Of a stretch of 64,000 bases of DNA, positions 15,356 to 64,000 are shown piece by piece. The notes under the pieces were generated by a model. The model did not search any database, was not told the origin of the DNA, and was given only the letters and a program-made list of their open reading frames with translations. The stretch is taken from assembly GCA_963836075.1 (NCBI GenBank), contig CAWIIB010000009.1, positions 2,656,001 through 2,720,000 on the forward strand. Direction: 5' to 3'. The position numbers and the translations under genes are program-made. The DNA comes from an uncultured Acidobacteriota bacterium. GTDB taxonomy: Bacteria > Acidobacteriota > JAQAZP01. How positions within the stretch are numbered: the first letter of the stretch is position 1; each line of letters starts with the position of its first letter.

Positions 15356-16850
15356 CCACCAACGGAACCACCTTCCGGGAGCCGTTGATCTTCGACATCG
15401 GCGGCGAAGGCCGCACCGGTTTTGCGCTCCCTGCCCTGGACGTGCCCGACACCGATCTGGCCGACGTGCTGGGCGAGGGAAACGTGCGTGACTCGATTCC
15501 CGGTTTCCCCCGGGTGAGCGAGGTGGAGGTGGTCCGCCACTTCTACCGTCTCTCCAAGTGGAACTACTGTATCGAGAACGGGCTCTACCCCCTCGGCTCA
15601 TGCACCATGAAGCACAACCCGCGGATCAACGAGGTGCTGGCCCGGCTCCCCGGGTTCGTGGAGAGCCACCCGTTACGGCCCACTTCGGCGGCCCAGGGCA
15701 ACCTGGAACTGCTGCACCATCTATCCGGCCTGCTGGCCGAGATCACCGGCCTGGATGCGGTGACCCTGCACCCCTGCGCCGGGTCCCATGGCGAATTGAC
15801 CGGGATGATGCTGGTCAAGAAGCATTTCGACACCCTGGGTGAGAAGCGGAAAACGGTGCTGATCCCCGATTCGGCCCACGGCACCAATCCGGCCAGCGCG
15901 GTGATCTGCGGTTTTGAAGCGAAGGAGATCCCCTCCGGTCCCGACGGCTGCGTGGACCTGGCACGCCTGGAAGCGGAGATGAGCGAGGACGTGGCGGCCC
16001 TGATGCTGACCAACCCCAACACCCTGGGGGTCTTCGAGCGCCAGATGGACCGCATCACCGAGATCGTCCACTCCCACGGCGGGCTGGTCTACATGGACGG
16101 GGCGAACATGAATGCCCTGCTGGGCAAGGTCCGCCCCGGGGACATGGGTGTGGACGTGCTGCACCTCAACCTGCACAAAACCTTTTCCACCCCCCACGGC
16201 GGCGGCGGCCCGGGCAGCGGCCCGGTGGCGGTGAAAAAAATACTGGAACCCTACCTGCCCCTGCCGGTGGTGACCCGCGTGGAGCAGGACGGGGGCCAGT
16301 GGTTTGAAGAGGACTACAACCGGCCCGCCTCCATCGGCCGCATCGGCGCCTTTTTCGGAAACTTCGGCACCACTGTGCGGGCGCTCTGCTACATCCTCAC
16401 CATGGGGCCTGAAGGCCTGGCCCGGGTCTCCGAGATGGCCGTGCTCAACGCCAACTACATCCGCCGCAAGCTCGAGCCGTTCTTCCATCTCAAGTACAAA
16501 AGCCCAGTGCTGCACGAGGTGGTCTTCGACGACAAGCTCCAGGCCGAGCACGGAGTGTCGGTGGGTGACATGGCCAAGCGGCTGATGGATTTCGGATTCC
16601 ACCCGCCCACGGTGAGCTTCCCCCTGATCGTGCACGGCGCGATGATGATCGAACCCACCGAGACCGAGCCGCGGGAGGAGATCGACCGTTTCATCGAGGC
16701 GATGATCCAGATTGCCGGAGAGGTGAAGAGCAATCCGGACCTGATCACCACGGCGCCCCGCAGCACACCGGTCAGCCGGCTGGACGAGGTGCAGGCGGCA
16801 CGCAAACCGGTGCTCAGGTGGACGCCGGGGGACGGGGGGAAGGGCAGTAG
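15352..16850 (+). CDS. gcvPB: Glycine dehydrogenase subunit 2 (stop apparently lost to an indel)
   Basis: YPLGSCTMKHNP, SAHGTNPASA, LNLHKTFSTPHGGGGPG, ends RLDEVQAARKPVLRW; one extra base in the G-run at 16834-16839 would bring TAG 16848-16850 in frame. Confidence 0.92.
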
Positions 16851-54057: not shown

Positions 54058-55771
54058 CTACTCCCCGTTGTTCTTCAGCAGGCGGTAGTTGCGGCGCCGG
54101 GCGATGGGTTTGGGGTAGGGGTAGTCGGTCTTGCGCAGCAGCAGCTCCTCCACGCTGTCCGGGTCGCCGGCGCCCTGCTCGGCGGCCTGGGCGGTGATGG
54201 AATCCAGGTTGGACAACAGCACCCGCACCAGTTCCGGGTCGAGAACGCTCCCCGACAGCTGCTCCAGTTCGGTGGCTGCCGATTCCAGCAGCTCGGCGGA
54301 CGGCCGGAGGTGCGAACCGGTGAGCAGGTCAAAGGTGCGGCAGAGGGCCAGAATCCTCGAGCCCAGAGGGATCTCCCGCCCGCGGAGCCGGTGCGGGGCT
54401 CCGGAGCCGTCGTAGTGCTCTCCCTGGTGGCGAATAATCCGCAGGGCTTCTTCGGGCAGACCCAGCGGCCGGAGAATCTCCACCCCCCGTTCCACCGGGT
54501 CAATGCCCGGGATGTCTGCGTTGCCGGCAGCGGAATCGCCAAAGGCCCCCACCTCGTGCAGCAGGGCGGAGGTACTTGAGCACCCGGATGCTCTGCGGCT
54601 TGGAGAGCAGGCGCCGGCCCAGCTCCACGGCATAGAGCGCGGTGTGGCGGCAGCGGGTGCGGGTGGCCGGGTCGTGCAGGCCCAGGGCCCGCAGCAGCGC
54701 TGACACCGCGCCGGCCAGGTGGTGCTGTTTGACCTGGGGTACCAATTGCGACGCGCTGGCCTTTCTCCGGGCCGGCTTGTCGTGGCTCTGCGGCTTCCAG
54801 CGCATGCTGCTGGTGATGAACTCCAGGTTGTTTTTCTGGCTGCAGAGGAAGTAGCGGTTGCGCCCCATCTTCTGCACCGAGGCCAAGGCGCTCTCGGCCA
54901 GGGCCAGCAGCTGTTCCGGGCGCTCCAGGTGGTTGTGCGGGTAGCAGGAGATGCCCAGGGTGATGGTCAGCGGCGGGGTGAAGCGCTCCCGGCCGGAAAA
55001 GTGGGCCTGGATGCTCTCGCGGACCCGCTCGGCAAAGGCGATGGCCCCGGGGACCTCGGTGTTGGGCAGCAGGATGCCGAATCGTCCCTCGGCCACGTGG
55101 GCCAGGATGTTGTTGCCCCGGGAGGTCCGGGCCAGCACCCGGGCGACGCTCTCGATGGCCGCGTCGCGCTCGAAGAGGCCCGTTTTCCGTTCGATGGCCT
55201 GCAGCCCGTCCACCTCGGCCACGATGCAGGAGAGCGGCTCCTTGAACCGCTCCACCCGTTTGAACTCCTCCTGGAGCCGGCGCACCAGGTAGTTGCGGTT
55301 GTAGAAACCGGTCTGGTCGTCGAGGAAGCGTTTGTCTTCGGGGAGCGGTTCGGTGGCCTGCTCCATCCTCCGCTTGAGACCGCAGAGATACTGGAGGCGC
55401 AGGGTCACTTCCTGCCGGTCGAAGGGCTTTTGCTGCACGCCGTCGGCGCCGGAGCGCACCGCTTCCAGGCGGGGTTTTACCCCCCGGCCGCCGTGGAGGT
55501 AGAGCAGCGGCACGTAGGGCAGGTTGGTGCCGTCAAAGGCGGTGCGGATTTTTGAGCTGAGGCTCAACGCCTGCCGGGTGGTCAGCCGCTCGCTGAGCAC
55601 GACGCAGTCCGGGCCCAGACGGCGGATCTCGTCCAGCAGGGCATCGTCGGTTCGGGGCGTGCAGAAGCGAAACCCCTCATCCTCCAGGGATTGCGCCAGC
55701 TGATCCACGAACCCGCTCCGCTCACCGATCACCAGGATGGTATGCTCCCGGTTCTGGTTGTGATCGCTCAT
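54058..55771 (-). CDS. REC-GGDEF-HD-GYP-like protein, degenerate, frameshift near 54570
   Basis: REC-like N-terminus (GADG...KPF); DDQTGFYNRNY...GGDEF-fold segment; HD-GYP-like 'EHYDGSGAPHRLRGREIPLGSRIL'. Confidence 0.8.
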
Positions 55772-55920
55772 CCGCCCGCCTGTCTGGAAGTCTGGTAAAA
55801 AAAGCCCTCGGGTGTATTCAGAAACCTTTTCGGCTCTTCCGGTGAAAATATTGACTACACGATGGACACCTGCAACAATGATACCTGTTTACCGAACCCC
55901 AGTGAAGGAAAAGAACCACC

Positions 55921-56283
55921 GTGATCTATCTCCTCATTCTGCTTGTACTCATCTCGGCGGCAACCCTGGCGCTGGTCTGGTTCCTGCTCAAGCGATTCAC
56001 CGGGCACCTGCAGCTCCAGGAGCACCGCCTGCTGCGGATGGAACGGCTGGTCAGCGACCTCTACCAGGAAAAAACGGTCAGCCTGGTGCGCCAGATGCAG
56101 GGCCGGATGAGGATCGAGCACGAAGCTCACCGGCAGGCGCTGAACCATTCGGGCGAGGCCTGGGACGAGGTGGAGGCCCTGTTCCGGGACGAGGACAACA
56201 ACTTCTCCACCGCCCTGAGGATCCTCCTCGAGGCGCGCCGGATGTACGAGGAGCGGATGAAGCTCCTCGACCGTTTGAGCTGA
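55921..56283 (+). CDS. Hypothetical membrane-anchored helical protein
   Basis: N-terminal TM followed by a charged helical region. Confidence 0.6.
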   Translation: MIYLLILLVLISAATLALVWFLLKRFTGHLQLQEHRLLRMERLVSDLYQEKTVSLVRQMQGRMRIEHEAHRQALNHSGEAWDEVEALFRDEDNNFSTALRILLEARRMYEERMKLLDRLS

Positions 56284-56483
56284 ATCGGCCGGCTCCGGAT
56301 GCCCCGCACCCCGGGGGGCGAATATTTTCATGAAATATTTGATTTCCGGTTTTGCTGATGATAGACTCCCCCTCTTTGAATGTTCGGCTGTTTTTCGGCA
56401 AGTATGCCTTATGAATATATTTGCCTTGAGGTAATTTTTTTCACACGAGGGGCTCTCGAAACCTGGAAGGGGCTGATTTCTGA

Positions 56484-56684
56484 ATGGAGAACCCGCTGGA
56501 AGTAAAGGTTCAGGATGACCTGGAAAAGGCCATCCGGGTGCTGAAACGGAAGATTGCGCGCAACGGTATTCTCAAGGAGCTGAAGAAACGACGGTTCTAC
56601 GAGAAGCCCAGCGAGCGGCGCAAACGCAAACGGATGGAAGCTGCCAAACGCCGCAAGAAAGCGATGCGGACGGGCCGCTATTGA
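56484..56684 (+). CDS. rpsU: 30S ribosomal protein S21
   Basis: LEKAIRVLKRK...GILKELKKRRFYEKPSERRKRK. Confidence 0.95.
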   Translation: MENPLEVKVQDDLEKAIRVLKRKIARNGILKELKKRRFYEKPSERRKRKRMEAAKRRKKAMRTGRY

Positions 56685-56693
56685 TCCTGGCGG

Positions 56694-56742
56694 AAAAGAA
56701 CCGGTAACGACGCCCTGGGCTCTCGTCACCGGTTCTTTTTTT
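56694..56742 (+). terminator. Rho-independent terminator after rpsU
   Basis: AAAAGAACCGGT..ACGA...TCGT.ACCGGTTCTTTTTTT. Confidence 0.75.
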
Positions 56743-56783
56743 GTCCGGACGTACCGCAGGCGCCGGTATTGATGGGTGGGAAG

Positions 56784-58190
56784 ATGTCGAAGATGGCCGG
56801 GGATGCCGCCGACGATCCCTATCGCGGGTATCGCGGGGCGGCCAGGGATAAGCTGGAAGCATGCGGTGTGCGGGTCTGGAGCGAAGTGACCGCCGACACC
56901 ACCAGGGGCGGGTTCCGGGGAATCGTCCTGCCGCGATCCGAAACCGCCGACGACCGTCACGTGGTGCTCAAGCTGAAGACCGGGTACAACGTGGGCCTGG
57001 AAGTGGACTCCATCCTGGCGATGGAGGAAAAGGGCTACCGCAAGATCACCTATAAAATCCCGGCCAAGGATGTGCCCCACAACCCGGACCTGCCCAACGT
57101 GACCCTCTTCGGCACCGGCGGCACCATCGCCAGCCGTCTGGACTACCGCACCGGCGCGGTGATCCCGGCCTTTTCACCGGGCGAGCTCTATGGCGCCGTC
57201 CCAGAGCTGGCCGAGATCTGCAACCTGAAGACCATCAAACTCTACGGCGAGTTCAGCGAGAACATCGGCCCCGAGCACTGGAAGGGCACCGCCGAGGCCG
57301 TGGCCCGCGAGATCGAGGCCGGCGCCGGGGGGATCGTCATCGGCCACGGCACCGACACCATGCATTTCACGGCGGCGGCGCTCTCCTTCATGCTCCAGGA
57401 CCCTCCGGTGCCGGTGGTGATGGTCGGCTCCCAGCGCTCCAGCGACCGTCCCTCCTCCGATGCCGCCCTCAACCTGATCAACGCCTCCCACGCCGCGGCC
57501 TATGGCGACATCGCCGAGGTGATGGTCTGCATGTTCGGGCCCACCAGCGACCAGTACGACCTGCTGCACCGCGGCACCCGGGTCAGGAAGATGCACTCCA
57601 GCTACCGCAGCACCTTCCGCACCATCGGTGACATCCCCCTGGCCATGATCTCCCCCGGCAACTACCGCATACTGCACAAGGAGGTCAAGAAACGGCGCAC
57701 GGACCGCTCCGTGAAGCTGAACACCAGCTTCGAGGAGAAGGTGGCGCTGGTCTCCTACTACCCCAACATGCAGCCCGACGTGCTGAACAGCCTGATCGAC
57801 AACGGCTATCGCGGCATCGTCATCGCCGGCACCGGGCTGGGCCACGTGAACAAGGTGGTCTACCCCGTGCTGCAGCGGGCCAGGGACGAGGGCGTGGCGG
57901 TCTACATGACGGTACAGACCCTCTGGGGCTACGTGCAGATGTATGTCTACGACACCGGGCGGGATATGATGGAGCTGGGAGTGATCCCGGCGGCCAACAT
58001 GCTGCCCGAGGTGGCCTATGTCAAGCTGGGCTGGGTGCTGGGCCAGACCGACGACCTGGACGAGGTGCGGCGGCTGATGCTCACCCCGGTGTCCCACGAG
58101 ATCACCGACCGCGAGCCGCCCAACGGCTACCTGATCTTGCAGGGCGGCATCCCCGAAGTGGAAGAGTACATTCTCAGTCACAGGAAATAG
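56784..58190 (+). CDS. gatD: Glu-tRNA(Gln) amidotransferase subunit D
   Basis: GatD-type N-terminal domain (GIVLPRSETADDRHVVLKLKTGYNVG), then GTGGTIASRLDYRTGAV, HGTDTM, VGSQRSSDRPSSD, HRGTRVRKMHSS.R, MLPEVAYVKLGWVL. Start could be 56769-56793. Confidence 0.92.
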   Translation: MSKMAGDAADDPYRGYRGAARDKLEACGVRVWSEVTADTTRGGFRGIVLPRSETADDRHVVLKLKTGYNVGLEVDSILAMEEKGYRKITYKIPAKDVPHNPDLPNVTLFGTGGTIASRLDYRTGAVIPAFSPGELYGAVPELAEICNLKTIKLYGEFSENIGPEHWKGTAEAVAREIEAGAGGIVIGHGTDTMHFTAAALSFMLQDPPVPVVMVGSQRSSDRPSSDAALNLINASHAAAYGDIAEVMVCMFGPTSDQYDLLHRGTRVRKMHSSYRSTFRTIGDIPLAMISPGNYRILHKEVKKRRTDRSVKLNTSFEEKVALVSYYPNMQPDVLNSLIDNGYRGIVIAGTGLGHVNKVVYPVLQRARDEGVAVYMTVQTLWGYVQMYVYDTGRDMMELGVIPAANMLPEVAYVKLGWVLGQTDDLDEVRRLMLTPVSHEITDREPPNGYLILQGGIPEVEEYILSHRK

Positions 58191-58203
58191 ACGGCGGCTT
58201 TGA

Positions 58204-60171
58204 TCAGCAGCCCAGCCTGGCGGCCAGCAGTTCCGCGGCCTGGCGGCCGGGGACCCGTCCGCCCACCCGGGACATCAGCAGGCCCATGGTGTGGCGCTGC
58301 CGCTGTGCCGGTCCGGCAAAGGGGATCTCCGCGGTGAGCGCCAGGGCGGCGTCCGCCTCGGTTTCCAGATCGGGCAGCGGTTGCCGGGGGTCGAGACCCA
58401 GGCCCTGGAGGGCCTGGTCCAGCGCCCCGTCACCATCCCCGCCGCTGGCGGTTTCGGCGAGCAGCGGCAGCAGCGGCCGCAGGGCTTCGGGGTAGAGCTT
58501 TTTCTCGGCCAGCAGGCGGAAGAGCTGGAAGAGATCGTCGTCGGTGATGCTCTGCACCCGGTTGGTGAGGCGGGCGGCATGCTTCAGTTCTTCCAGCAGA
58601 GTGGAGGCCACCAGCCGCGGATCCAGATCCAGCCGGGACAAGACCTGTTCGGCCAGCGCCCCCCGTGGTGAGACGGCCAGGGCGCGGGCCGCCGGGGCGG
58701 CCAGCCCCCGGACGGCAAAGGCTTCTTCGCGGTCCCACGGTTTCGAGTTCAGCACGGCGGTGATGCGGGCGATCCGGTCATCGCCGATGGCTTTTGGCGG
58801 CATGTCGGTGTCGGGATACATCCGGTCCGGCCCGGGAAGGATCCGTTCGAAGTCGGTCCGCCCGTCGGGCCGTGGCTGCCGGGTCTCGCTGGGCACGCCC
58901 TCGGCCGCTTCGGCGGCGCGGATCACCACTTCCTCGGCCGCGGTGGCGGTGTCTCTTTCCGGTCCCCAGACCAGGACCACGGCGTCGTCAGCGCCGGCGG
59001 AACACTCCTGCCGCACCTCGTCCCAGATCCGGCGGTCCGGCGCCCCGGCCGCCTCTCCGTCGGCCTGCTCGGCGTGGTAGAGGTTGGGCATCCGGTCGAG
59101 ACAGGCGATGACCCGCACCCGGCCGCCCAGCTCGTCGGCAAAGCAGGTTTCCGGCTGGGTGGGCCAGGGGAGGATCCCTTTGAACCCCTGCAGCCTGACA
59201 GCCCGGACGTTCAGCCCGGCATCGCCGTCCTCCGCCAGGTGCGTGCTGATCCTGCTGTCGCCGCCCCGGTGGCGGAAGAGGTCGGTGACCTCCACCGTGC
59301 TGTGGCCGTCTCCCTGCACCGATTCGGGGGTGATGCCGCGGGTCCGCAGTTCATCCCTGATGTCCAGCAGCGCCTTGTGCCGGTGGGCCTCCACCAGCAC
59401 CAGCTGCTCGATCAGCGGGATTCGCGACACCCCCTTGACCTCCACCCGGGTGGAGCCATCGATGCTCACGTTCACGTCCTGGCGGGCCGCTCCGGCGCCG
59501 CGCCGCACCTTGCCGGTGACCCGGGCCAGCCGGGCCAGCTCCCAGCCCACCGCCGCCGCTTCCTCGGGGGTGTACATTTCCGGTTCGGTCACCGTCTCGC
59601 AGAGCGGTATGCTCAACCGGTCGGTACGGTAGGTCATGATGTGGCCGATGTCGCTCACCTCGCGGCAGGCGTCCTCCTCCACGGCCAGCTGGCGGATGCC
59701 GATAGTCCGGCCGCGGAAGGGAATCCCGCCGTCCACGCCGATGATGGCCGTGCGCTGGAAGCCGGCGGGGATACTGCCGTCCAGATACTGCTTGCGGATG
59801 ATGTGGATTTCCCCCACCAGGCTGCAGCCGAGCATCAGGGCCAGCTCCAGCGCGATGTCCAGGGCCTGCTCGTTGAGCTCGAAGGGCGGGGCGTCGTCCA
59901 TCTCGTAGGTGCAGACCGACTCGCTGTTCAGGCGGTAGATCACATCCTTGCGGGTTTTGAACTCCATCAGCGCCGTGCCGTCGTATTCCCCCATCTCGGA
60001 GAGGGTGGGGCGCATGTGACGGAGCACCTCGGCGTCGAAGCGCTTGCTGTAGAGGCGCGCCGGGCAGCGGCAGAAGAGTTTTTTTTGGGTCAGCAGCTGC
60101 TGGTGGATTTCCAGGCCGCAGCGGAAGCCCAGCCCCCGGAAAGCGCTGTCGGACAGAAGCTGAAAGCTCAA
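58204..60171 (-). CDS. gatE: Glu-tRNA(Gln) amidotransferase subunit E
   Basis: CGLEIHQQL..KKLFCRCP, RPTLSEMGEYD..AL.E, RKQYLDGSIPAGFQRT, EEDACRE, RRGAGAARQDVNVSI...RVEVKGV, insertion domain, GVPSETR, LPGPDRMYPDTDMPP; TTG start after GGAGGGAG. Confidence 0.92.
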   Translation of the reverse strand: MSFQLLSDSAFRGLGFRCGLEIHQQLLTQKKLFCRCPARLYSKRFDAEVLRHMRPTLSEMGEYDGTALMEFKTRKDVIYRLNSESVCTYEMDDAPPFELNEQALDIALELALMLGCSLVGEIHIIRKQYLDGSIPAGFQRTAIIGVDGGIPFRGRTIGIRQLAVEEDACREVSDIGHIMTYRTDRLSIPLCETVTEPEMYTPEEAAAVGWELARLARVTGKVRRGAGAARQDVNVSIDGSTRVEVKGVSRIPLIEQLVLVEAHRHKALLDIRDELRTRGITPESVQGDGHSTVEVTDLFRHRGGDSRISTHLAEDGDAGLNVRAVRLQGFKGILPWPTQPETCFADELGGRVRVIACLDRMPNLYHAEQADGEAAGAPDRRIWDEVRQECSAGADDAVVLVWGPERDTATAAEEVVIRAAEAAEGVPSETRQPRPDGRTDFERILPGPDRMYPDTDMPPKAIGDDRIARITAVLNSKPWDREEAFAVRGLAAPAARALAVSPRGALAEQVLSRLDLDPRLVASTLLEELKHAARLTNRVQSITDDDLFQLFRLLAEKKLYPEALRPLLPLLAETASGGDGDGALDQALQGLGLDPRQPLPDLETEADAALALTAEIPFAGPAQRQRHTMGLLMSRVGGRVPGRQAAELLAARLGC

Positions 60172-60254
60172 CGGATCTCCCTCCCGGCCACCATTTTCCC
60201 CGGCGGCACGCTGTCCCGAGCCGGTCAATGCCCGGCAGGGGTGCAAGCCGCGCT

Positions 60255-60283
60255 ATCTTAAATGGGGCCCGGCGGAGTGTCAA
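60255..60283 (-). promoter_or_regulatory. Sigma-70 promoter upstream of gatE
   Basis: TTGACA-17 nt-TAAGAT on the minus strand. Confidence 0.6.
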
Positions 60284-60653
60284 GATTTCCCGTTGCCGCG
60301 ATGCGAAGAAGAGACTTGACATCCGGACGCCGCGGACCAATATTAGATCCTGTCAGCGCACCCTGCTCGAAAAGCGACTGTTCGACTCCCGGCCCCGCCA
60401 TCCGGATGAGCCTTGTCTGCTGTCCCTGCTGCTCCAACGGGCCGCCAACCCGTGCCAACTGAATTTTCCAGGTTGACATAATTATCGTTAATGAAGGTCA
60501 CCTGCTGTTCCGATAGGAGGAGCAAGGGTGTAGTGACCGCTCCACGGTAGCAGTGGAGACGTGTTTCCCGGTGCAGTGTCCGACGAATTCGCTCTCACAA
60601 CCGAATTCAATACTTATCTGTTTTGCGTTTCCGTAAAGCGGAAGGTGTCACCA

Positions 60654-61478
60654 ATGAAAGACACAACCAAGCAGGAACAAAGTGTCGAGGACCGGTCCGG
60701 CATTGTCGGCTCAATCCGGACCGACAAACTGAAACCGCTGGCCAGTCCTCTTGAGCGGCGCGGGAGCGGTCCGCTCACCGCCGCCGAGCAGCTGCGACAG
60801 CGTGAACGCCTGACCGCCATCGGCGAGATGGCCACCACGCTGGTCCACGAGATCAAGGCCCCGCTCAATGCCATTGGCGGGTTTGCCCGGTCGATGCTGA
60901 AGAACAACACCGGTCCGGTCTCCAACAAGGAACCGCTGGGCATCATCGTCAACGAGGTGTCCCGGCTGGAGCAGTTGCTCGACAACGTCATCGGCTTCGC
61001 CAACCCCGAGCGGATGCAGCTGGTGTCCTGCTCGATCAACCGCCTGGTGGCCGAGACCGCGGCGATCCTGGGGCCGATGTGCCGGGAGTCGAAGATCGAG
61101 GTGCGGATGGCTCTGGCCGAGGATCTGCCCGATCTGCTGCTGGACCGCAACCAGGTCCACCAGGTGCTGGAGAACCTCTGCGCCAACGCCAAGCAGGCCA
61201 TGCCCCGCGGCGGCGAGATTTCCGTGACCACCCGCCTGGTGGGCCGGGAAGTGGAGGTGCGGGTGGTGGACACGGGCCACGGCATCCCGCAGCTGCTGCA
61301 CCGGCGGGTCTTCGAGCCCTTCTATTCCACCCGCAGCATGGGAACCGGCCTGGGACTGGCGGTGACGGCGCGGGTGATGGCCGGCCATGGCGGATCGGCC
61401 TTCCTCGACGGCACGGTGACCGACGGCGCGGCCTTCTGCCTCCGTTTTCCTGTTCCGCAGACCACCCGTGGTGCATAG
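60654..61478 (+). CDS. Histidine kinase (HisKA + HATPase, no obvious sensor domain)
   Basis: IGEMATTLVHEIKAPL, QVLENLCANA, DTGHGI, FEPFYSTR..GTGLGL. Confidence 0.88.
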   Translation: MKDTTKQEQSVEDRSGIVGSIRTDKLKPLASPLERRGSGPLTAAEQLRQRERLTAIGEMATTLVHEIKAPLNAIGGFARSMLKNNTGPVSNKEPLGIIVNEVSRLEQLLDNVIGFANPERMQLVSCSINRLVAETAAILGPMCRESKIEVRMALAEDLPDLLLDRNQVHQVLENLCANAKQAMPRGGEISVTTRLVGREVEVRVVDTGHGIPQLLHRRVFEPFYSTRSMGTGLGLAVTARVMAGHGGSAFLDGTVTDGAAFCLRFPVPQTTRGA

Positions 61479-61528
61479 AAAAACCCTTCTCCCGATCCGA
61501 CCGTTGCGGACCGCGAGAGGGGTTTTTC
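61478..61528. terminator. Bidirectional hairpin terminator
   Basis: GAAAAACCCTTCTC...GAGAGGGGTTTTTC between convergent genes. Confidence 0.65.
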
Positions 61529-61549
61529 AATTCCGTTGCCGGGCCGGGA

Positions 61550-62272
61550 TCAGTAGCGGCCCACGTCCTCGGGGATGCGGGTGGTGATCATGTCGCTGCC
61601 GGGCTGCCAGCCGGCCGGGGCGGCGTGGCCCGGGTTGGCGGCCACCGCCTGCATCGCCTTGACCTGCCGGATCAGCTCCTGCACATTGCGGCCCACCGGA
61701 CCGGCCAGGACTTCAACGCCCTTGATCGTCCCCTGGGGGTCGATGATGAACCGGCCGCGCTGGTTGAGACCCATGTTCGCCATGTAGACGCCATAGGCCC
61801 GGGACACCGCGCCGTTGGGGTCCGACGCCATGGCGTACGCTACGTTCTTCACCGTGGGGGAGGTTTTCTTGAACATCAGGTGGGAAAAAATGGTGTCGGT
61901 GCTCACTGCGATGACTTCAACACCCAGACCCTGCAACTCGTCGTAGACGTCTGCGACCGCAGACAGTTCGGTGGGTCAGACAAAGGTGAAGTCGGCGGGG
62001 TAGAAGCAGACCACCCGCCACTTCCCGTCGTAGTCGGAGAGCTTGACCTTCTTCACTTCATCACCCACCACGGCATCCAGCTCGAAGTTGGGAGCCTTCA
62101 TCCCGGGCAGGGGCACACCGCTCACCGGCTGGGCGGCATCCGCCACTGGCGCTGTGGCCTGGGGCGTATCGGCATCCGGGGTGCCGCAGGGCCCGAGTAC
62201 TTCGGCGGCGCAGGTGCCGGGGATCAGGAGCAATACCGCCACAATGGCGGCGGCGGACAGGACAGTTTTCAT
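61550..62272 (-). CDS. Selenocysteine-containing AhpC-type peroxiredoxin with signal peptide
   Basis: In-frame read-through [10 protein letters not shown](TGA 61976-61978)-PTEL; VSTDT.FSH; RGRFIIDP.G; GRNVQELIR. Confidence 0.9.
61949..61964 (-). promoter_or_regulatory. SECIS-like hairpin
   Basis: GUCUGC-GGUC-GCAGAC; loop starts 17 nt after the UGA. Confidence 0.7.
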
Positions 62273-62511
62273 CGAGTATCTCCTCTGGTTTACGGGTCAC
62301 GCGGCAGCGGATCCGGCCGCGACGCTCACTCCACAGTCACGCGTAACCCTATAATTAATGTAGGGATTAGCTCCCATTGGCCGACACCAGTTAGATGATC
62401 ATCAGCACGATTGGTTACATGTTTTTCAGAATAATTCAGGATGGTTGGGACAGGGGGGCAAGAAGGTAAAGTGTGGTGCGGGGCCGGACCGGGTCCGGCC
62501 CCAGGGATGAA

Positions 62512-63882
62512 TTACTGTTTCACCGCCTCGATGGCGCCTTCCACCAGGTCCCGCATCTCCTGCAGGCGTTCTGCGGTCAGAGCTTCGAAACGGAGCACCA
62601 GCACCGGCTGGGTGTTCGATGCCCGGGCCAGGGCCCAGCCGTCGGGGAAGACCACCCGTACCCCGTCCACGTCGATGATCTCGTGGTCCTTGCTCAGGCG
62701 CTCTTTCAGCCGTTCGATGAGCGGGAATTTTTCTTCGTCGGGGCACTCCACACGGATCTCAGGGGTGGAGACGGTCTTGGGCACATCGGCCAGCATGGCG
62801 GTCAGCGGCACATCCGAGGAGGCGGCGATGTCGATCAGCCGGCAGGAGGCATAGACCGCGTCGTCAAAGCCGTAGTAGCCGTCGGAGAAGAACATGTGGC
62901 CGCTCAGCTCGCCGGCCAGTTCGGCGGCGGTCTCCTTCATCTTGGCCTTGATCAGCGAGTGGCCGGTCTTCCACATCACCGCGTTGCCGCCGTGGGCCCG
63001 GATGTCGTCGTAGAGCGTGGTGGAGGCCTTGACCTCGGAGATGATGGTGGCTCCCGGCTTGCGGGAGAGGATCTCCCGGGCGTAGAGGATCAGCAGCTTG
63101 TCGCCCCAGATGATCCCCCCCTTCTCGTCCACCGCGCCGATGCGGTCGGCGTCGCCGTCGTAGGCCAGGCCGAGGTCGGCGCCCTCGTCCACCACCCGCC
63201 GGCGCAGTTCCGCCAGGTTCTTCTCCACCGTGGGGTCGGGGTGGTGGTTGGGAAAGGTGCCGTCCACGTCGCAGTAGAGTTCCACCACGTCGCAGCCCAG
63301 CCGGCGGAACAGCTGGGGGGCCACCAGGCCGCCGGTGCCGTTGCCGCAGTCCACCACCACCTTGAGCGGCCGCTTGAAGTTGAAGAGGCTGCTCAGTTCG
63401 TCGAGATACTCGGGGATGATGTCGTAGCTGTCCACCGCCCCGGTGCCGCTTGCCAGGTCGCCGCCCTCGATGACCCGGCGTACCTCCTGGATCTGGTCCC
63501 CGTGGAGGGTGCTGGTGCCCACGCAGAGTTTCATCCCGTTGAACTCCGGCGGGTTGTGACTGCCGGTGATCATTATCCCGCCTTCCTTCTCCAGCTTGTG
63601 GATCGAGTAGTAGAGCAGGGGAGTGGTGCAGAGACCGATGTCGGTGACCTGGATCCCGGCGGCCAGCAGGCCGCGGGTCAGGGCGGCGGAGATGCGCTCC
63701 GAGCTGAGCCGGCAGTCGCGGCCGAGGCTGATCCGCTTGCGGCCGTCCCGCTGCAGCATGGTGCCGAAGGCCCGGCCGATGGCCTGGACCACGTCGTCGG
63801 TGAGGTCATCAGCGGCGATGCCCCTGATGTCATATTCCCTGAAGATCGATGGGTTGAACTCCACCGCTGCGCTCTCGTTCAT
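62512..63882 (-). CDS. Phosphomannomutase/phosphoglucomutase (AlgC-like)
   Basis: FREYDIRG, ITGSHNP, FPNHHPDP, DGDADR, GELSGH, RASNTQP. Confidence 0.95.
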   Translation of the reverse strand: MNESAAVEFNPSIFREYDIRGIAADDLTDDVVQAIGRAFGTMLQRDGRKRISLGRDCRLSSERISAALTRGLLAAGIQVTDIGLCTTPLLYYSIHKLEKEGGIMITGSHNPPEFNGMKLCVGTSTLHGDQIQEVRRVIEGGDLASGTGAVDSYDIIPEYLDELSSLFNFKRPLKVVVDCGNGTGGLVAPQLFRRLGCDVVELYCDVDGTFPNHHPDPTVEKNLAELRRRVVDEGADLGLAYDGDADRIGAVDEKGGIIWGDKLLILYAREILSRKPGATIISEVKASTTLYDDIRAHGGNAVMWKTGHSLIKAKMKETAAELAGELSGHMFFSDGYYGFDDAVYASCRLIDIAASSDVPLTAMLADVPKTVSTPEIRVECPDEEKFPLIERLKERLSKDHEIIDVDGVRVVFPDGWALARASNTQPVLVLRFEALTAERLQEMRDLVEGAIEAVKQ

Positions 63883-63897
63883 TGTTCCTCGCTCCCT

Positions 63898-64000
63898 TCA
63901 GGCCGTGACCAGGGTGCCCACCGGCTCTCCCTGGGCCGCCTTTAAAATGGCATCATGATCGAAGATGTTGAAAACCACGATCGGGATGTTGTTTTCCATG
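63898..64000 (-). CDS. pyrH: UMP kinase C-terminal end (truncated by the window)
   Basis: My translation ...MENNIPIVVFNIFDHDAILKAAQGEPVGTLVTA* matches the PyrH C-terminus pattern. Confidence 0.75.
   Translation of the reverse strand, partial: MENNIPIVVFNIFDHDAILKAAQGEPVGTLVTA

Follow-up and report, generated by a model that had tools for sequence, protein, structure and literature searches.

GatDE, a heterodimeric Glu-tRNA(Gln) amidotransferase, is cited as an archaeal signature, and its tie to the A1-U72 pair of tRNA-Gln has been used to explain why archaea never took up glutaminyl-tRNA synthetase (GlnRS). One of the two solved pairs, PDB 1ZQ1, we take to be that of Pyrococcus abyssi. The other, PDB 2D6F, is that of Methanothermobacter thermautotrophicus (PMC2330236, PMC2811023), and the enzyme is described as recognising tRNA-Gln of archaea by its A1-U72 pair and its D-loop (PMC2330236, PMC9499178). 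Two papers, a 2009 study and a 2022 review, restrict GatDE to archaea, and in PMC2811023 it is said that GatDE 'occurs exclusively in archaea'. Here, we describe a gatD-gatE pair in the chromosome of an uncultured Acidobacteriota bacterium. The pair lies in the window, by which we mean the whole stretch of 64,000 nucleotides analysed (G000:C9:2656001-2720000), within a 3.52-Mb contig of a 6.23-Mb genome of 10 contigs and 64% G+C.

In a 2014 survey of bacterial glutamyl-tRNA synthetase (GluRS) and GlnRS (PMC3927822), the words GatDE, GatD and GatE are absent from the text, supplements aside. In addition, no account of bacterial GatDE was found in the titles and abstracts searched, with most subscription papers and supplements outside the scope of that search. 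The bacterial branch is apparently undescribed. Since the genes pass the NCBI cut-offs, automatic annotation would already name them gatD and gatE, and therefore the novelty lies in recognising and characterising the branch rather than in detecting its genes.

The window encodes an intact GatDE pair

In the gatD product, Pfam recognised GatD_N (PF18195, 44.2 bits), Asparaginase (PF00710, 178 bits) and Asparaginase_C (PF17763, 111.3 bits). The protein scored above the cut-offs of the NCBIfam equivalog TIGR02153 (519.5 bits against 324) and of NF003217 (512.5 bits against 310), and it matched TIGR00519 with 386.7 bits. Among solved structures, it matched the GatD chains 2d6f_A (425 bits) and 1zq1_A (414 bits), and asparaginase chains reached at most 139 bits. 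Residues T114, T190, D191 and K269 are aligned with T101, T177, D178 and K254 of 2d6f_A, which we take to be essential catalytic residues of GatD, and 93 of the 110 columns conserved in canonical archaeal rows are retained (a conserved column having at most one miss among these rows). The alignment shows the catalytic residues of GatD to be intact.

The gatE product is covered by Pfam GatB_N over residues 43-491, which indicates a large insert within the domain. It scored above the cut-offs of NF003107 (478.1 bits against 456) and TIGR00134 (396.4 bits against 319.55) and below those of the GatB models, where it reached at most 124.6 bits against cut-offs of at least 314.8 (TIGR00133, 105.8 against 314.8). 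The match to 1zq1_C was full-length (324 bits; residues 11-647 of the query on 10-621 of the chain), with 293 bits to 2d6f_C, and the 1zq1_C alignment takes in the insertion domain between the cradle and helical domains that GatB does not have. GatB structure chains, in contrast, reached at most 69 bits and covered the cradle domain alone (about 100-274), and identity to the GatB of the host genome itself was 28% over 280 residues. In GatE, 77 of the 112 columns conserved in canonical archaeal rows are retained.

These results agree with a preliminary description of the window, which had proposed from its letters that both subunits are intact and had named a grouping with GatB or AnsA as evidence against it; both subunits group with GatD and GatE instead. 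It had also placed the pair beside rpsU among bacterial genes, in sequence as GC-rich as its surroundings, and had pointed to a sigma-70-type promoter and a Shine-Dalgarno sequence for gatE; both signals are present as promoter-like and Shine-Dalgarno-like sites, the latter reading GGGAGGGAG. Around the pair stand rpsU (ribosomal protein S21) and genes for a GGDEF response regulator, a histidine kinase and a phosphoglucomutase, and the 16S rRNA gene of the host genome scored 1598.8 bits on the bacterial model. G+C at third codon positions (GC3) is 0.908 in gatD and 0.881 in gatE, compared to 0.72-0.91 in five neighbouring genes; the pair is ameliorated. Over positions 54081-64000, the window is colinear at 80-89% nucleotide identity with contigs from its two congeners (G001 and G002), and therefore the rpsU-gatD-gatE junctions are not an assembly chimera, a possibility that the same description had left to be checked. 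Measured against these congeners, the ratio of nonsynonymous to synonymous substitution (dN/dS) comes to 0.09-0.10 in gatD and 0.25-0.27 in gatE, inside the range of 0.02-0.38 of neighbouring genes; both genes are under purifying selection.

Bacterial GatDE is widespread and forms a distinct branch

A sample of 41 genomes of the host phylum, the host included, was searched for both subunits. GatE scored above its cut-off in 11 of them and just under it (446 bits) in a twelfth, and GatD scored above its cut-off in exactly these 12; G025 is among the non-holders. A wider draw from the phylum, with 401 genomes in 227 genera, gave GatE at E<=1e-100 in 61 genomes and 41 genera; it was found in all genomes of families f17 (8/8) and f13 (3/3) and in none of the large families f19 (0/25), f27 (0/33) and f29 (0/27). 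In a scan of one genome per species over 185,579 species, 564 stretches encoding relatives were found and the best 80 were kept. Of these best 80, 67 were labelled Bacteria, 8 Archaea and 5 had no rank, which contradicts the archaea-specific distribution assumed at the outset. The bacterial loci among them carry at least 16 NCBI phylum names, among them Ignavibacteriota (14), Myxococcota (8), Bacteroidota (6), Calditrichota (6) and Krumholzibacteriota (5). Complete chromosomes, or contigs of more than 1.5 Mb, carry several of these loci; a genome of Caldithrix abyssi is represented, and some holder lineages have cultured members.

Identities were taken from tblastn. For GatD, the window copy has 64-74% identity with copies from other bacterial phyla and 69-72% with those of some Thermoplasmatota metagenome-assembled genomes (MAGs), compared to 40-46% with the canonical copies of that archaeal phylum. 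For GatE, the identity is 44-56% with other bacterial copies and with archaeal copies of a second type (type 2), compared to 31-39% with canonical archaeal copies.

GatE trees were built with FastTree (114 rows) and, for a subset of 67 rows (11 canonical archaeal, 11 archaeal type-2 and 45 bacterial), with IQ-TREE; the window's own copies (L003 and L004), a duplicate (L020) and rows of fewer than 450 residues or 150 bits were left out. The two trees agree. In the IQ-TREE tree, one clade (100/100) unites the canonical archaeal rows, which serve as the outgroup, and another (100/100) unites the other 56 rows. Within the latter, the 45 bacterial rows are one clade with an ultrafast bootstrap of 96 and an SH-aLRT of 90, recovered in 94% of 200 bootstrap trees, and the 11 archaeal type-2 rows, all of the Thermoplasmatota phylum, form a grade below it. 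The sister of the window's genus is a pair of Myxococcota-labelled MAGs (94/91). Each host-phylum group pairs with a Myxococcota-labelled MAG, and at least seven changes of label among host-phylum and Myxococcota-labelled rows are forced by well-supported branches; from this we infer that the gatDE module would have moved repeatedly between bacterial phyla. Taken by itself, the pairing would also point to Myxococcota as the probable phylum of the host, whereas the lineage assigned to it is Acidobacteriota. A FastTree tree of GatD (80 rows) is congruent in outline, with canonical archaea separated from the rest (100), five archaeal type-2 rows in one clade (100) and the same sister group for the window as in the GatE tree. 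Type 2, as we call it, is a distinct branch of the family, made up of all bacterial GatDE examined and some copies of the Thermoplasmatota phylum.

Bit scores against the solved euryarchaeal enzymes 1zq1 and 2d6f were used as a gauge of divergence. For GatE, a canonical archaeal copy scored 648 and 570 bits, an archaeal type-2 copy 413 and 381, and the window 324 and 293. For GatD, the corresponding values were 431 and 416, 430 and 409, and 414 and 425. GatE, the tRNA-binding subunit, has diverged strongly, and GatD has not. By this gauge the bacterial GatD lies within archaeal diversity, which argues for transfer from archaea over a separate ancient bacterial line. A relic of LUCA retained in bacteria was considered and is disfavoured, given 414-425 bits for bacterial GatD against 416-431 bits for the canonical GatD of the Thermoplasmatota phylum. 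Taken together, these results suggest that a single entry from archaea into bacteria, followed by movement between bacterial phyla as a two-gene module, is most likely. The old archaea-to-bacteria transfer proposed for this locus in the preliminary description therefore stands in part: the tree fits an archaeal origin, but the event was not the host's own, since the clade spans many bacterial phyla.

In two archaeal genomes, G041 and G053, a canonical GatE (804 and 751 bits) is accompanied by a type-2 GatE (647 and 548 bits), and hence both types coexist there, as paralogues or through a second acquisition.

Gene order was compared in 83 loci with both genes. In 64, all bacterial, gatE precedes gatD on one strand. 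The order gatD to gatE was found in 10, nine of them canonical archaeal and one a Stahlbacteria MAG; the genes diverge in 6 (five archaeal type-2 loci and a Planctomycetota MAG) and converge in 3 (the two congeners of the host and a Planctomycetota MAG), as they also do in the window, where the stop codons are 13 bases apart. Among 58 loci with flanks, no neighbour family besides gatD and gatE recurs widely, and gatDE behaves as a self-contained two-gene module. A glutamine synthetase gene lies within 6 kb on either side of gatE in 8 of the 58 loci, in both domains (L026, L036, L056, L058, L096, L078, L023 and L033): five loci with Krumholzibacteriota-type GatE have it directly upstream and on the strand of gatE, two Thermoplasmata loci have it just downstream of gatE, and in the Rhodothermaceae locus L078 it is about 3.9 kb upstream. 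The next commonest annotated neighbours were an MFS transporter and a polysaccharide-synthesis protein (6/58 each). A larger neighbour cluster (10/58) is an open frame antisense to gatE and was taken as spurious. In two host-phylum genomes, a single stop-free frame runs over gatE and then gatD (1212 and 1222 aa), and in three canonical archaeal loci (L105, L109 and L112) a single frame of 838-1100 aa runs over gatD and then gatE; these loci may encode fused GatDE polypeptides.

A proposed function beside GlnRS and GatCAB

The explanation that we favour, and judge to be reasonably probable, is that the pair encodes a functional heterodimeric GatDE acting as a Glu-tRNA(Gln) amidotransferase on U1-A72 tRNA-Gln, in parallel with GlnRS and GatCAB, and descending from one archaeal entry. 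If the solved archaeal enzyme is taken as a guide, GatD would act as an asparaginase-type amidase and free ammonia from glutamine or asparagine, and GatE would phosphorylate and then amidate the glutamate on Glu-tRNA(Gln). The substrate would probably be the bacterial-type tRNA-Gln (U1-A72, G73), charged with glutamate by one of the two bacterial GluRS. GatDE would then probably provide a second route to Gln-tRNA(Gln), or clean up mischarged Glu-tRNA(Gln), beside GlnRS and GatCAB. What we infer in this explanation is which tRNA serves as substrate, where Glu-tRNA(Gln) comes from and what the physiological role is.

The inventory of the host genome bears on the supply of substrate. GatB scored 515.6 bits (cut-off 314.8), gatA is read in two frames (474.8 and 46.9 bits), and a gatC-like gene just upstream of gatA scored 39.8 bits, under the cut-off of 47.1. 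The asparaginyl-tRNA synthetase (AsnRS) gene asnS is likewise read in two frames (270.4 and 177.9 bits). Both frame switches fall at short C runs, and asnS is intact in the two congeners; the switches are probably assembly indels, the alternative being real frameshifts. There are also four AsnB-family genes and two bacterial GluRS genes (497.6 and 452 bits), for which a Thermus enzyme chain ranked 9th and 11th among the structure matches. That the host keeps GatCAB and two GluRS suggests that Glu-tRNA(Gln) arises by mischarging, and its supply in the host is plausible. GluRS copy number did not track the presence of GatDE. One host gltX has the same orientation as the tRNA-Gln(CUG) and tRNA-Glu(CUC) genes and stands directly upstream of them, and glnS and gltX adjoin in the phylum-mates G018, G019, G029, G035 and G011. 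With GlnRS, GatCAB, AsnRS and two GluRS in the inventory, gatDE replaces neither GlnRS nor GatCAB in the host genome, which settles in the negative a question that the preliminary description had raised.

A short basic loop of GatE-type, GKVRRGAG, occupies the site of the 3-10 turn K183-E186 of GatB, as located by mapping this element from Staphylococcus aureus GatB onto host GatB and from there onto GatE; it is two residues shorter than its equivalent in host GatB. The GatE loop is described as the counterpart of the GatB element that reads U1-A72 (PMC2811023). Just before a conserved RQD, canonical rows have the two residues TI, archaeal type-2 rows have SV and bacterial rows have AA (residues 228-229 in GatE of the window).

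Observations that weigh against the proposed function

Several observations weigh against this explanation. The host genome has GlnRS (732.4 bits; cut-off 425.8), as do 10 of the 12 host-phylum holders of GatDE, and 36 named holders of other phyla show the same overlap, with GlnRS in 30 and GatB in 19. Completeness is not given for the genomes of these 36, in which both were found in 15, GlnRS only in 15, GatB only in 4 and neither in 2. Within the host phylum, a full GatB is present in 6 of the 12 and a contig-end fragment in one; GlnRS occurs without GatB in five (G003, G018, G019, G024 and G035) and GatB without GlnRS in two (G014 and G031). Altogether, GlnRS and/or GatB is found in 46 of 48 GatDE holders, the two without either being MAGs. 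In addition, the archaeal-type non-discriminating GluRS (ND-GluRS), the known docking partner of GatDE, was not found at E<=1e-50 in any of the 41 host-phylum genomes.

The tRNA partner also differs from that of the archaeal enzyme. Both tRNA-Gln genes of the host have U1-A72 and G73, so that the archaeal A1-U72 pair, named in the preliminary description as the GatDE target, is not what a check of positions 1 and 72 gave. Likewise, all nine distinct tRNA-Gln genes found in the five phylum-mates with GatDE and without GatB have U1-A72, eight with G73 and one with A73. In the host genome, A1-U72 occurs in tRNA-Trp and tRNA-Val(GAC) only. In the type-2 archaeal genomes G042, G043 and G058, tRNA-Gln has A1-U72 with G73, and in the canonical G068 A1-U72 with A73; ARAGORN started several archaeal tRNA genes one base early, and the pairs were read by hand. 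Bacterial GatDE faces the opposite orientation of the first pair of tRNA-Gln. Since the host is without an A1-U72 tRNA-Gln, GatDE must use a U1-A72 tRNA or another substrate.

Further points of this kind come from GatE itself. Its margin over the NF003107 cut-off is narrow (22 bits). The tail motif GXXAXGX is absent and PAQRQRH stands at that site (residues about 618-624); in its strict form (G..A.G) the motif occurs in 8/16 canonical, 0/13 archaeal type-2 and 0/83 bacterial rows. The insertion-domain motif, ...HSDELPxYGI in canonical rows, is cut to ...HSD... in bacteria and half retained in archaeal type-2 rows. The functions of these motifs are taken from papers on other enzymes; the insertion domain has been proposed as a docking pocket for archaeal ND-GluRS that excludes ND-AspRS, the aspartyl-tRNA synthetase of the non-discriminating kind (PMC2943598). 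The loss of the insertion-domain motif would fit the absence of archaeal GluRS in bacteria. With both motifs lost, specificity may therefore differ. As for the origin, the GatD tree places two bacterial rows, with weak support, outside the clade of archaeal type-2 rows, and donor and direction are tentative because the archaeal comparison rows, from 24 genomes, all belong to one phylum.

Two further observations concern GlnRS. In some phylum-mates, the GlnRS frame extends into a GatB/YqeY-like tail, to about 792-832 aa. In Thermoplasmatota-labelled MAGs with type-2 GatDE, a genome search found GlnRS with 743 and 732 bits on TIGR00440, and a cut copy scored 794.5 bits on the model of the GlnRS/YqeY fusion. 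In the two of the three MAGs that were searched for it, GlnRS is flanked by tRNA-Gln(CUG) and tRNA-Gln(UUG), with archaeal A1-U72 and with G73; in the third, G058, two tRNA-Gln genes are equally spaced. Among the genes around these loci, none is diagnostic of domain. According to a 2022 review, GlnRS is absent from all archaea.

Alternative explanations

A changed specificity, by which GatDE would amidate Asp-tRNA(Asn), alone or along with Glu-tRNA(Gln), as GatCAB does, and so serve tRNA-dependent asparagine synthesis where GatCAB is absent, is unlikely in our view. It would suit the host tRNA-Asn, which shares U1-A72 and G73 with tRNA-Gln, and the more basic stretch that replaces the tail motif (mean K+R of 3.4, compared to 2.6 in canonical rows). 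It would also suit the holders in which GatDE is the sole amidotransferase found (5/12 in the host phylum and 15/36 of the named holders). However, AsnRS is present in all 12 host-phylum holders, and of the five without GatB, three have AsnB-family genes (G003, G024 and G035) and one has AsnA (G018), which leaves only G019, a genome 99% complete in which GatDE was found and no AsnB-family gene, AsnA or GatB, to fit the need. The host itself has GatCAB, AsnRS and its AsnB-family genes. Moreover, the insertion domain reported to exclude ND-AspRS (PMC2943598) is retained, and no archaeal-type AspRS was found in the holders or elsewhere in the 41 host-phylum genomes, each of which gave one match. 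The genomic support for Asp-tRNA(Asn) specificity is thin. A role out of translation, in which the amidase, kinase and transamidase chemistry would act on another acyl substrate or serve nitrogen or glutamine regulation, seems to us quite improbable. All four domains of GatE (cradle, insertion, helical and tail) align with 1zq1_C, the basic loop that adjoins the first base pair has been retained and gatDE stands next to rpsU in this genus, although the near-universal presence of GlnRS and/or GatB in holders, the drop in GatE score against 1zq1_C to half the canonical value with GatD unchanged, the two lost motifs and the glnA neighbours at 8/58 loci would be expected of such a role. We know of no non-tRNA substrate in the GatDE family, which also counts against it. 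We further entertain, tentatively and with more doubt than belief, that type 2 is a re-specified rather than a spare GatDE. The loss of the tail and GluRS-docking motifs would then go with a reading of U1-A72, and in cells that have GlnRS as well the enzyme could be dedicated to correcting Glu-tRNA(Gln), or could be an amidotransferase for both Glu and Asp, the lost tail motif being the one that keeps archaeal GatDE off tRNA-Asn.

That an old transfer left the genes behind as a relic, decaying or neutral and now without function, is disfavoured and very improbable. The redundancy with GlnRS and GatCAB and the rearrangement to a convergent order in the genus could be taken that way, but both frames are intact although host gatA and asnS show frame switches, dN/dS is 0.09-0.27, whole families (f17 and f13) retain the genes, and GatD identity of 64-74% holds across phyla. 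An artefact, in which a piece of archaeal DNA was mis-assembled or mis-binned into the bacterial genome, can be dismissed almost entirely. An estimated contamination of 4.61% in the host assembly speaks for it; yet the genes lie 2.71 Mb into the 3.52-Mb contig between bacterial genes, two congeners have them in the same order, relatives sit on complete bacterial chromosomes and contigs above 1.5 Mb, and GC3 is like that of the neighbours. A functional Glu-tRNA(Gln) amidotransferase beside GlnRS and GatCAB is the explanation that we retain.

Expression signals and positions of features

The coordinates of the features are collected in Table 1. Between 56300 and 60700, two promoter-like sites were found, compared to a mean of 0.6 (standard deviation 0.8) in shuffled sequence. 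The fold of 56690-56750, which takes in the hairpin 3' of rpsU, has -28.5 kcal/mol (z = -4.29), and none of 200 shuffles was equally stable; the consensus scan for terminators did not pick up this hairpin. The consensus scan gave no promoter-like site on the plus strand between the hairpin and the gatD start, and no terminator-like site was found between the gatD and gatE stops. Elsewhere in the window, ARAGORN called a 94-nt tRNA-Ile(GAT) that the Rfam tRNA model did not report, and the host genome has other over-long or odd ARAGORN calls, for example one of 98 nt with a four-base anticodon; these calls, the one in the window included, are probably false positives.

Table 1. Positions of the features discussed; those without a genome, contig or locus prefix are positions in the window.
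Feature	Position	Strand	Remarks
gatD	56784..58190	+	468 aa; start ATG 56784, ATG 56793 also possible; listed open reading frame 56769-58190, first codon TTG 56769
gatE	58204..60171	-	655 aa from TTG 60171; converges on gatD; listed open reading frame 58204-60246, first codon TTG 60246
Sigma-70-type promoter-like site	60255..60283	-	Upstream of gatE; TTGACA-17-TAAGAT; 10/12 consensus positions; consensus match only
Shine-Dalgarno-like GGGAGGGAG	60177..60185	-	5 nt ahead of gatE TTG 60171; from sequence
Terminator-like hairpin and U-run	56698..56742	+	3' of rpsU, about 40 nt before the gatD start
rpsU	56484-56684		Ribosomal protein S21
tRNA-Ile(GAT) call	15687-15780		ARAGORN
Odd tRNA call	C9:1307917		Host genome; ARAGORN
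gatA	G000:C9:2934320-2935709		Read in two frames
asnS	G000:C9:2336284-2337553		Read in two frames
gltX	G000:C1:1157766-1159635		Upstream of tRNA-Gln(CUG) and tRNA-Glu(CUC)
gatE-gatD single frame, G003	L125:2712-6347		1212 aa
gatE-gatD single frame, G035	G035:C38 (L014)		1222 aa
GatE types of G041	G041:C37:2454-4367; G041:C207:436-2310		Two types
GatE types of G053	G053:C38:12581-14485; G053:C37:15518-17413		Two types
GlnRS-YqeY-like frame	G007:C75:37481-39691		
GlnRS-YqeY-like frame	G004:C1:228745-231120		
GlnRS-YqeY-like frame	G039:C2:2229011-2231254		
GlnRS-YqeY-like frame	G022:C6:178958-181201		
Type-2 Thermoplasmatota tRNA-Gln/GlnRS locus	G042:C16:8551-10614		L129, L133
Type-2 Thermoplasmatota tRNA-Gln/GlnRS locus	G043:C44:8248-10159		L130, L134
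Type-2 Thermoplasmatota tRNA-Gln locus	G058:C6:51851-53711		L131, L135

Significance

A monophyletic bacterial GatDE that spans many phyla, is under purifying selection, stands beside GlnRS and faces U1-A72 contradicts the archaea-only distribution. As a natural experiment, it bears on how the tRNA partner of an amidotransferase comes to change, on why an indirect route persists beside a direct one and on how parts of the translation apparatus cross domains. With cultured members in some holder lineages, such as Caldithrix abyssi, these questions can be tested at the bench. If the re-specification of type 2 is true, the first-base-pair rule (A1-U72 for GatDE and U1-A72 for GatCAB) would not be fixed by enzyme family, and the argument from co-evolution of GatDE with archaeal tRNA-Gln would need revision.

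Comparison with known systems

Compared to the archaeal GatDE of 2D6F and 1ZQ1, the window pair has the same two subunits in the same domain order and aligns to both solved pairs over its full length, and it retains the GatD catalytic positions, the GatE insertion domain and the short basic loop. It differs in having a bacterial host, a tRNA-Gln with U1-A72 and G73 and a coexisting GlnRS, and its GatE differs in the absent GXXAXGX, the reduced insertion motif and a bit score about half the canonical one. The archaeal enzyme has ND-GluRS as a partner, whereas none was found in the bacterial holders searched, and the archaeal order gatD to gatE contrasts with the usual bacterial order gatE to gatD. 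Type I L-asparaginase of the AnsA family has the asparaginase fold in common with the GatD core, but is without the GatD_N domain that GatD adds, and GatD is also paired with gatE.

Bacterial GatCAB, as in Staphylococcus aureus (2DF4 and 3IP4), has in GatB a paralogue of GatE with a common cradle domain; the reaction chemistry is the same and the tRNA partners would match (U1-A72). GatCAB has the amidase-signature GatA and GatC, whereas the window pair has an asparaginase-like GatD and no GatC. In addition, the 3-10 turn with which GatB reads U1-A72 is replaced in GatE by a loop two residues shorter, and GatE adds the insertion domain. The long GlnRS frames of phylum-mates resemble the GlnRS-YqeY fusion of Deinococcus. 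The same apparent redundancy is described for Deinococcus, Thermus and Bdellovibrio, in which an amidotransferase is retained beside GlnRS and AsnRS (PMC4206432). Those bacteria retain GatCAB for tRNA-dependent asparagine synthesis, whereas the amidotransferase retained here is GatDE, often together with asparagine synthetase genes.

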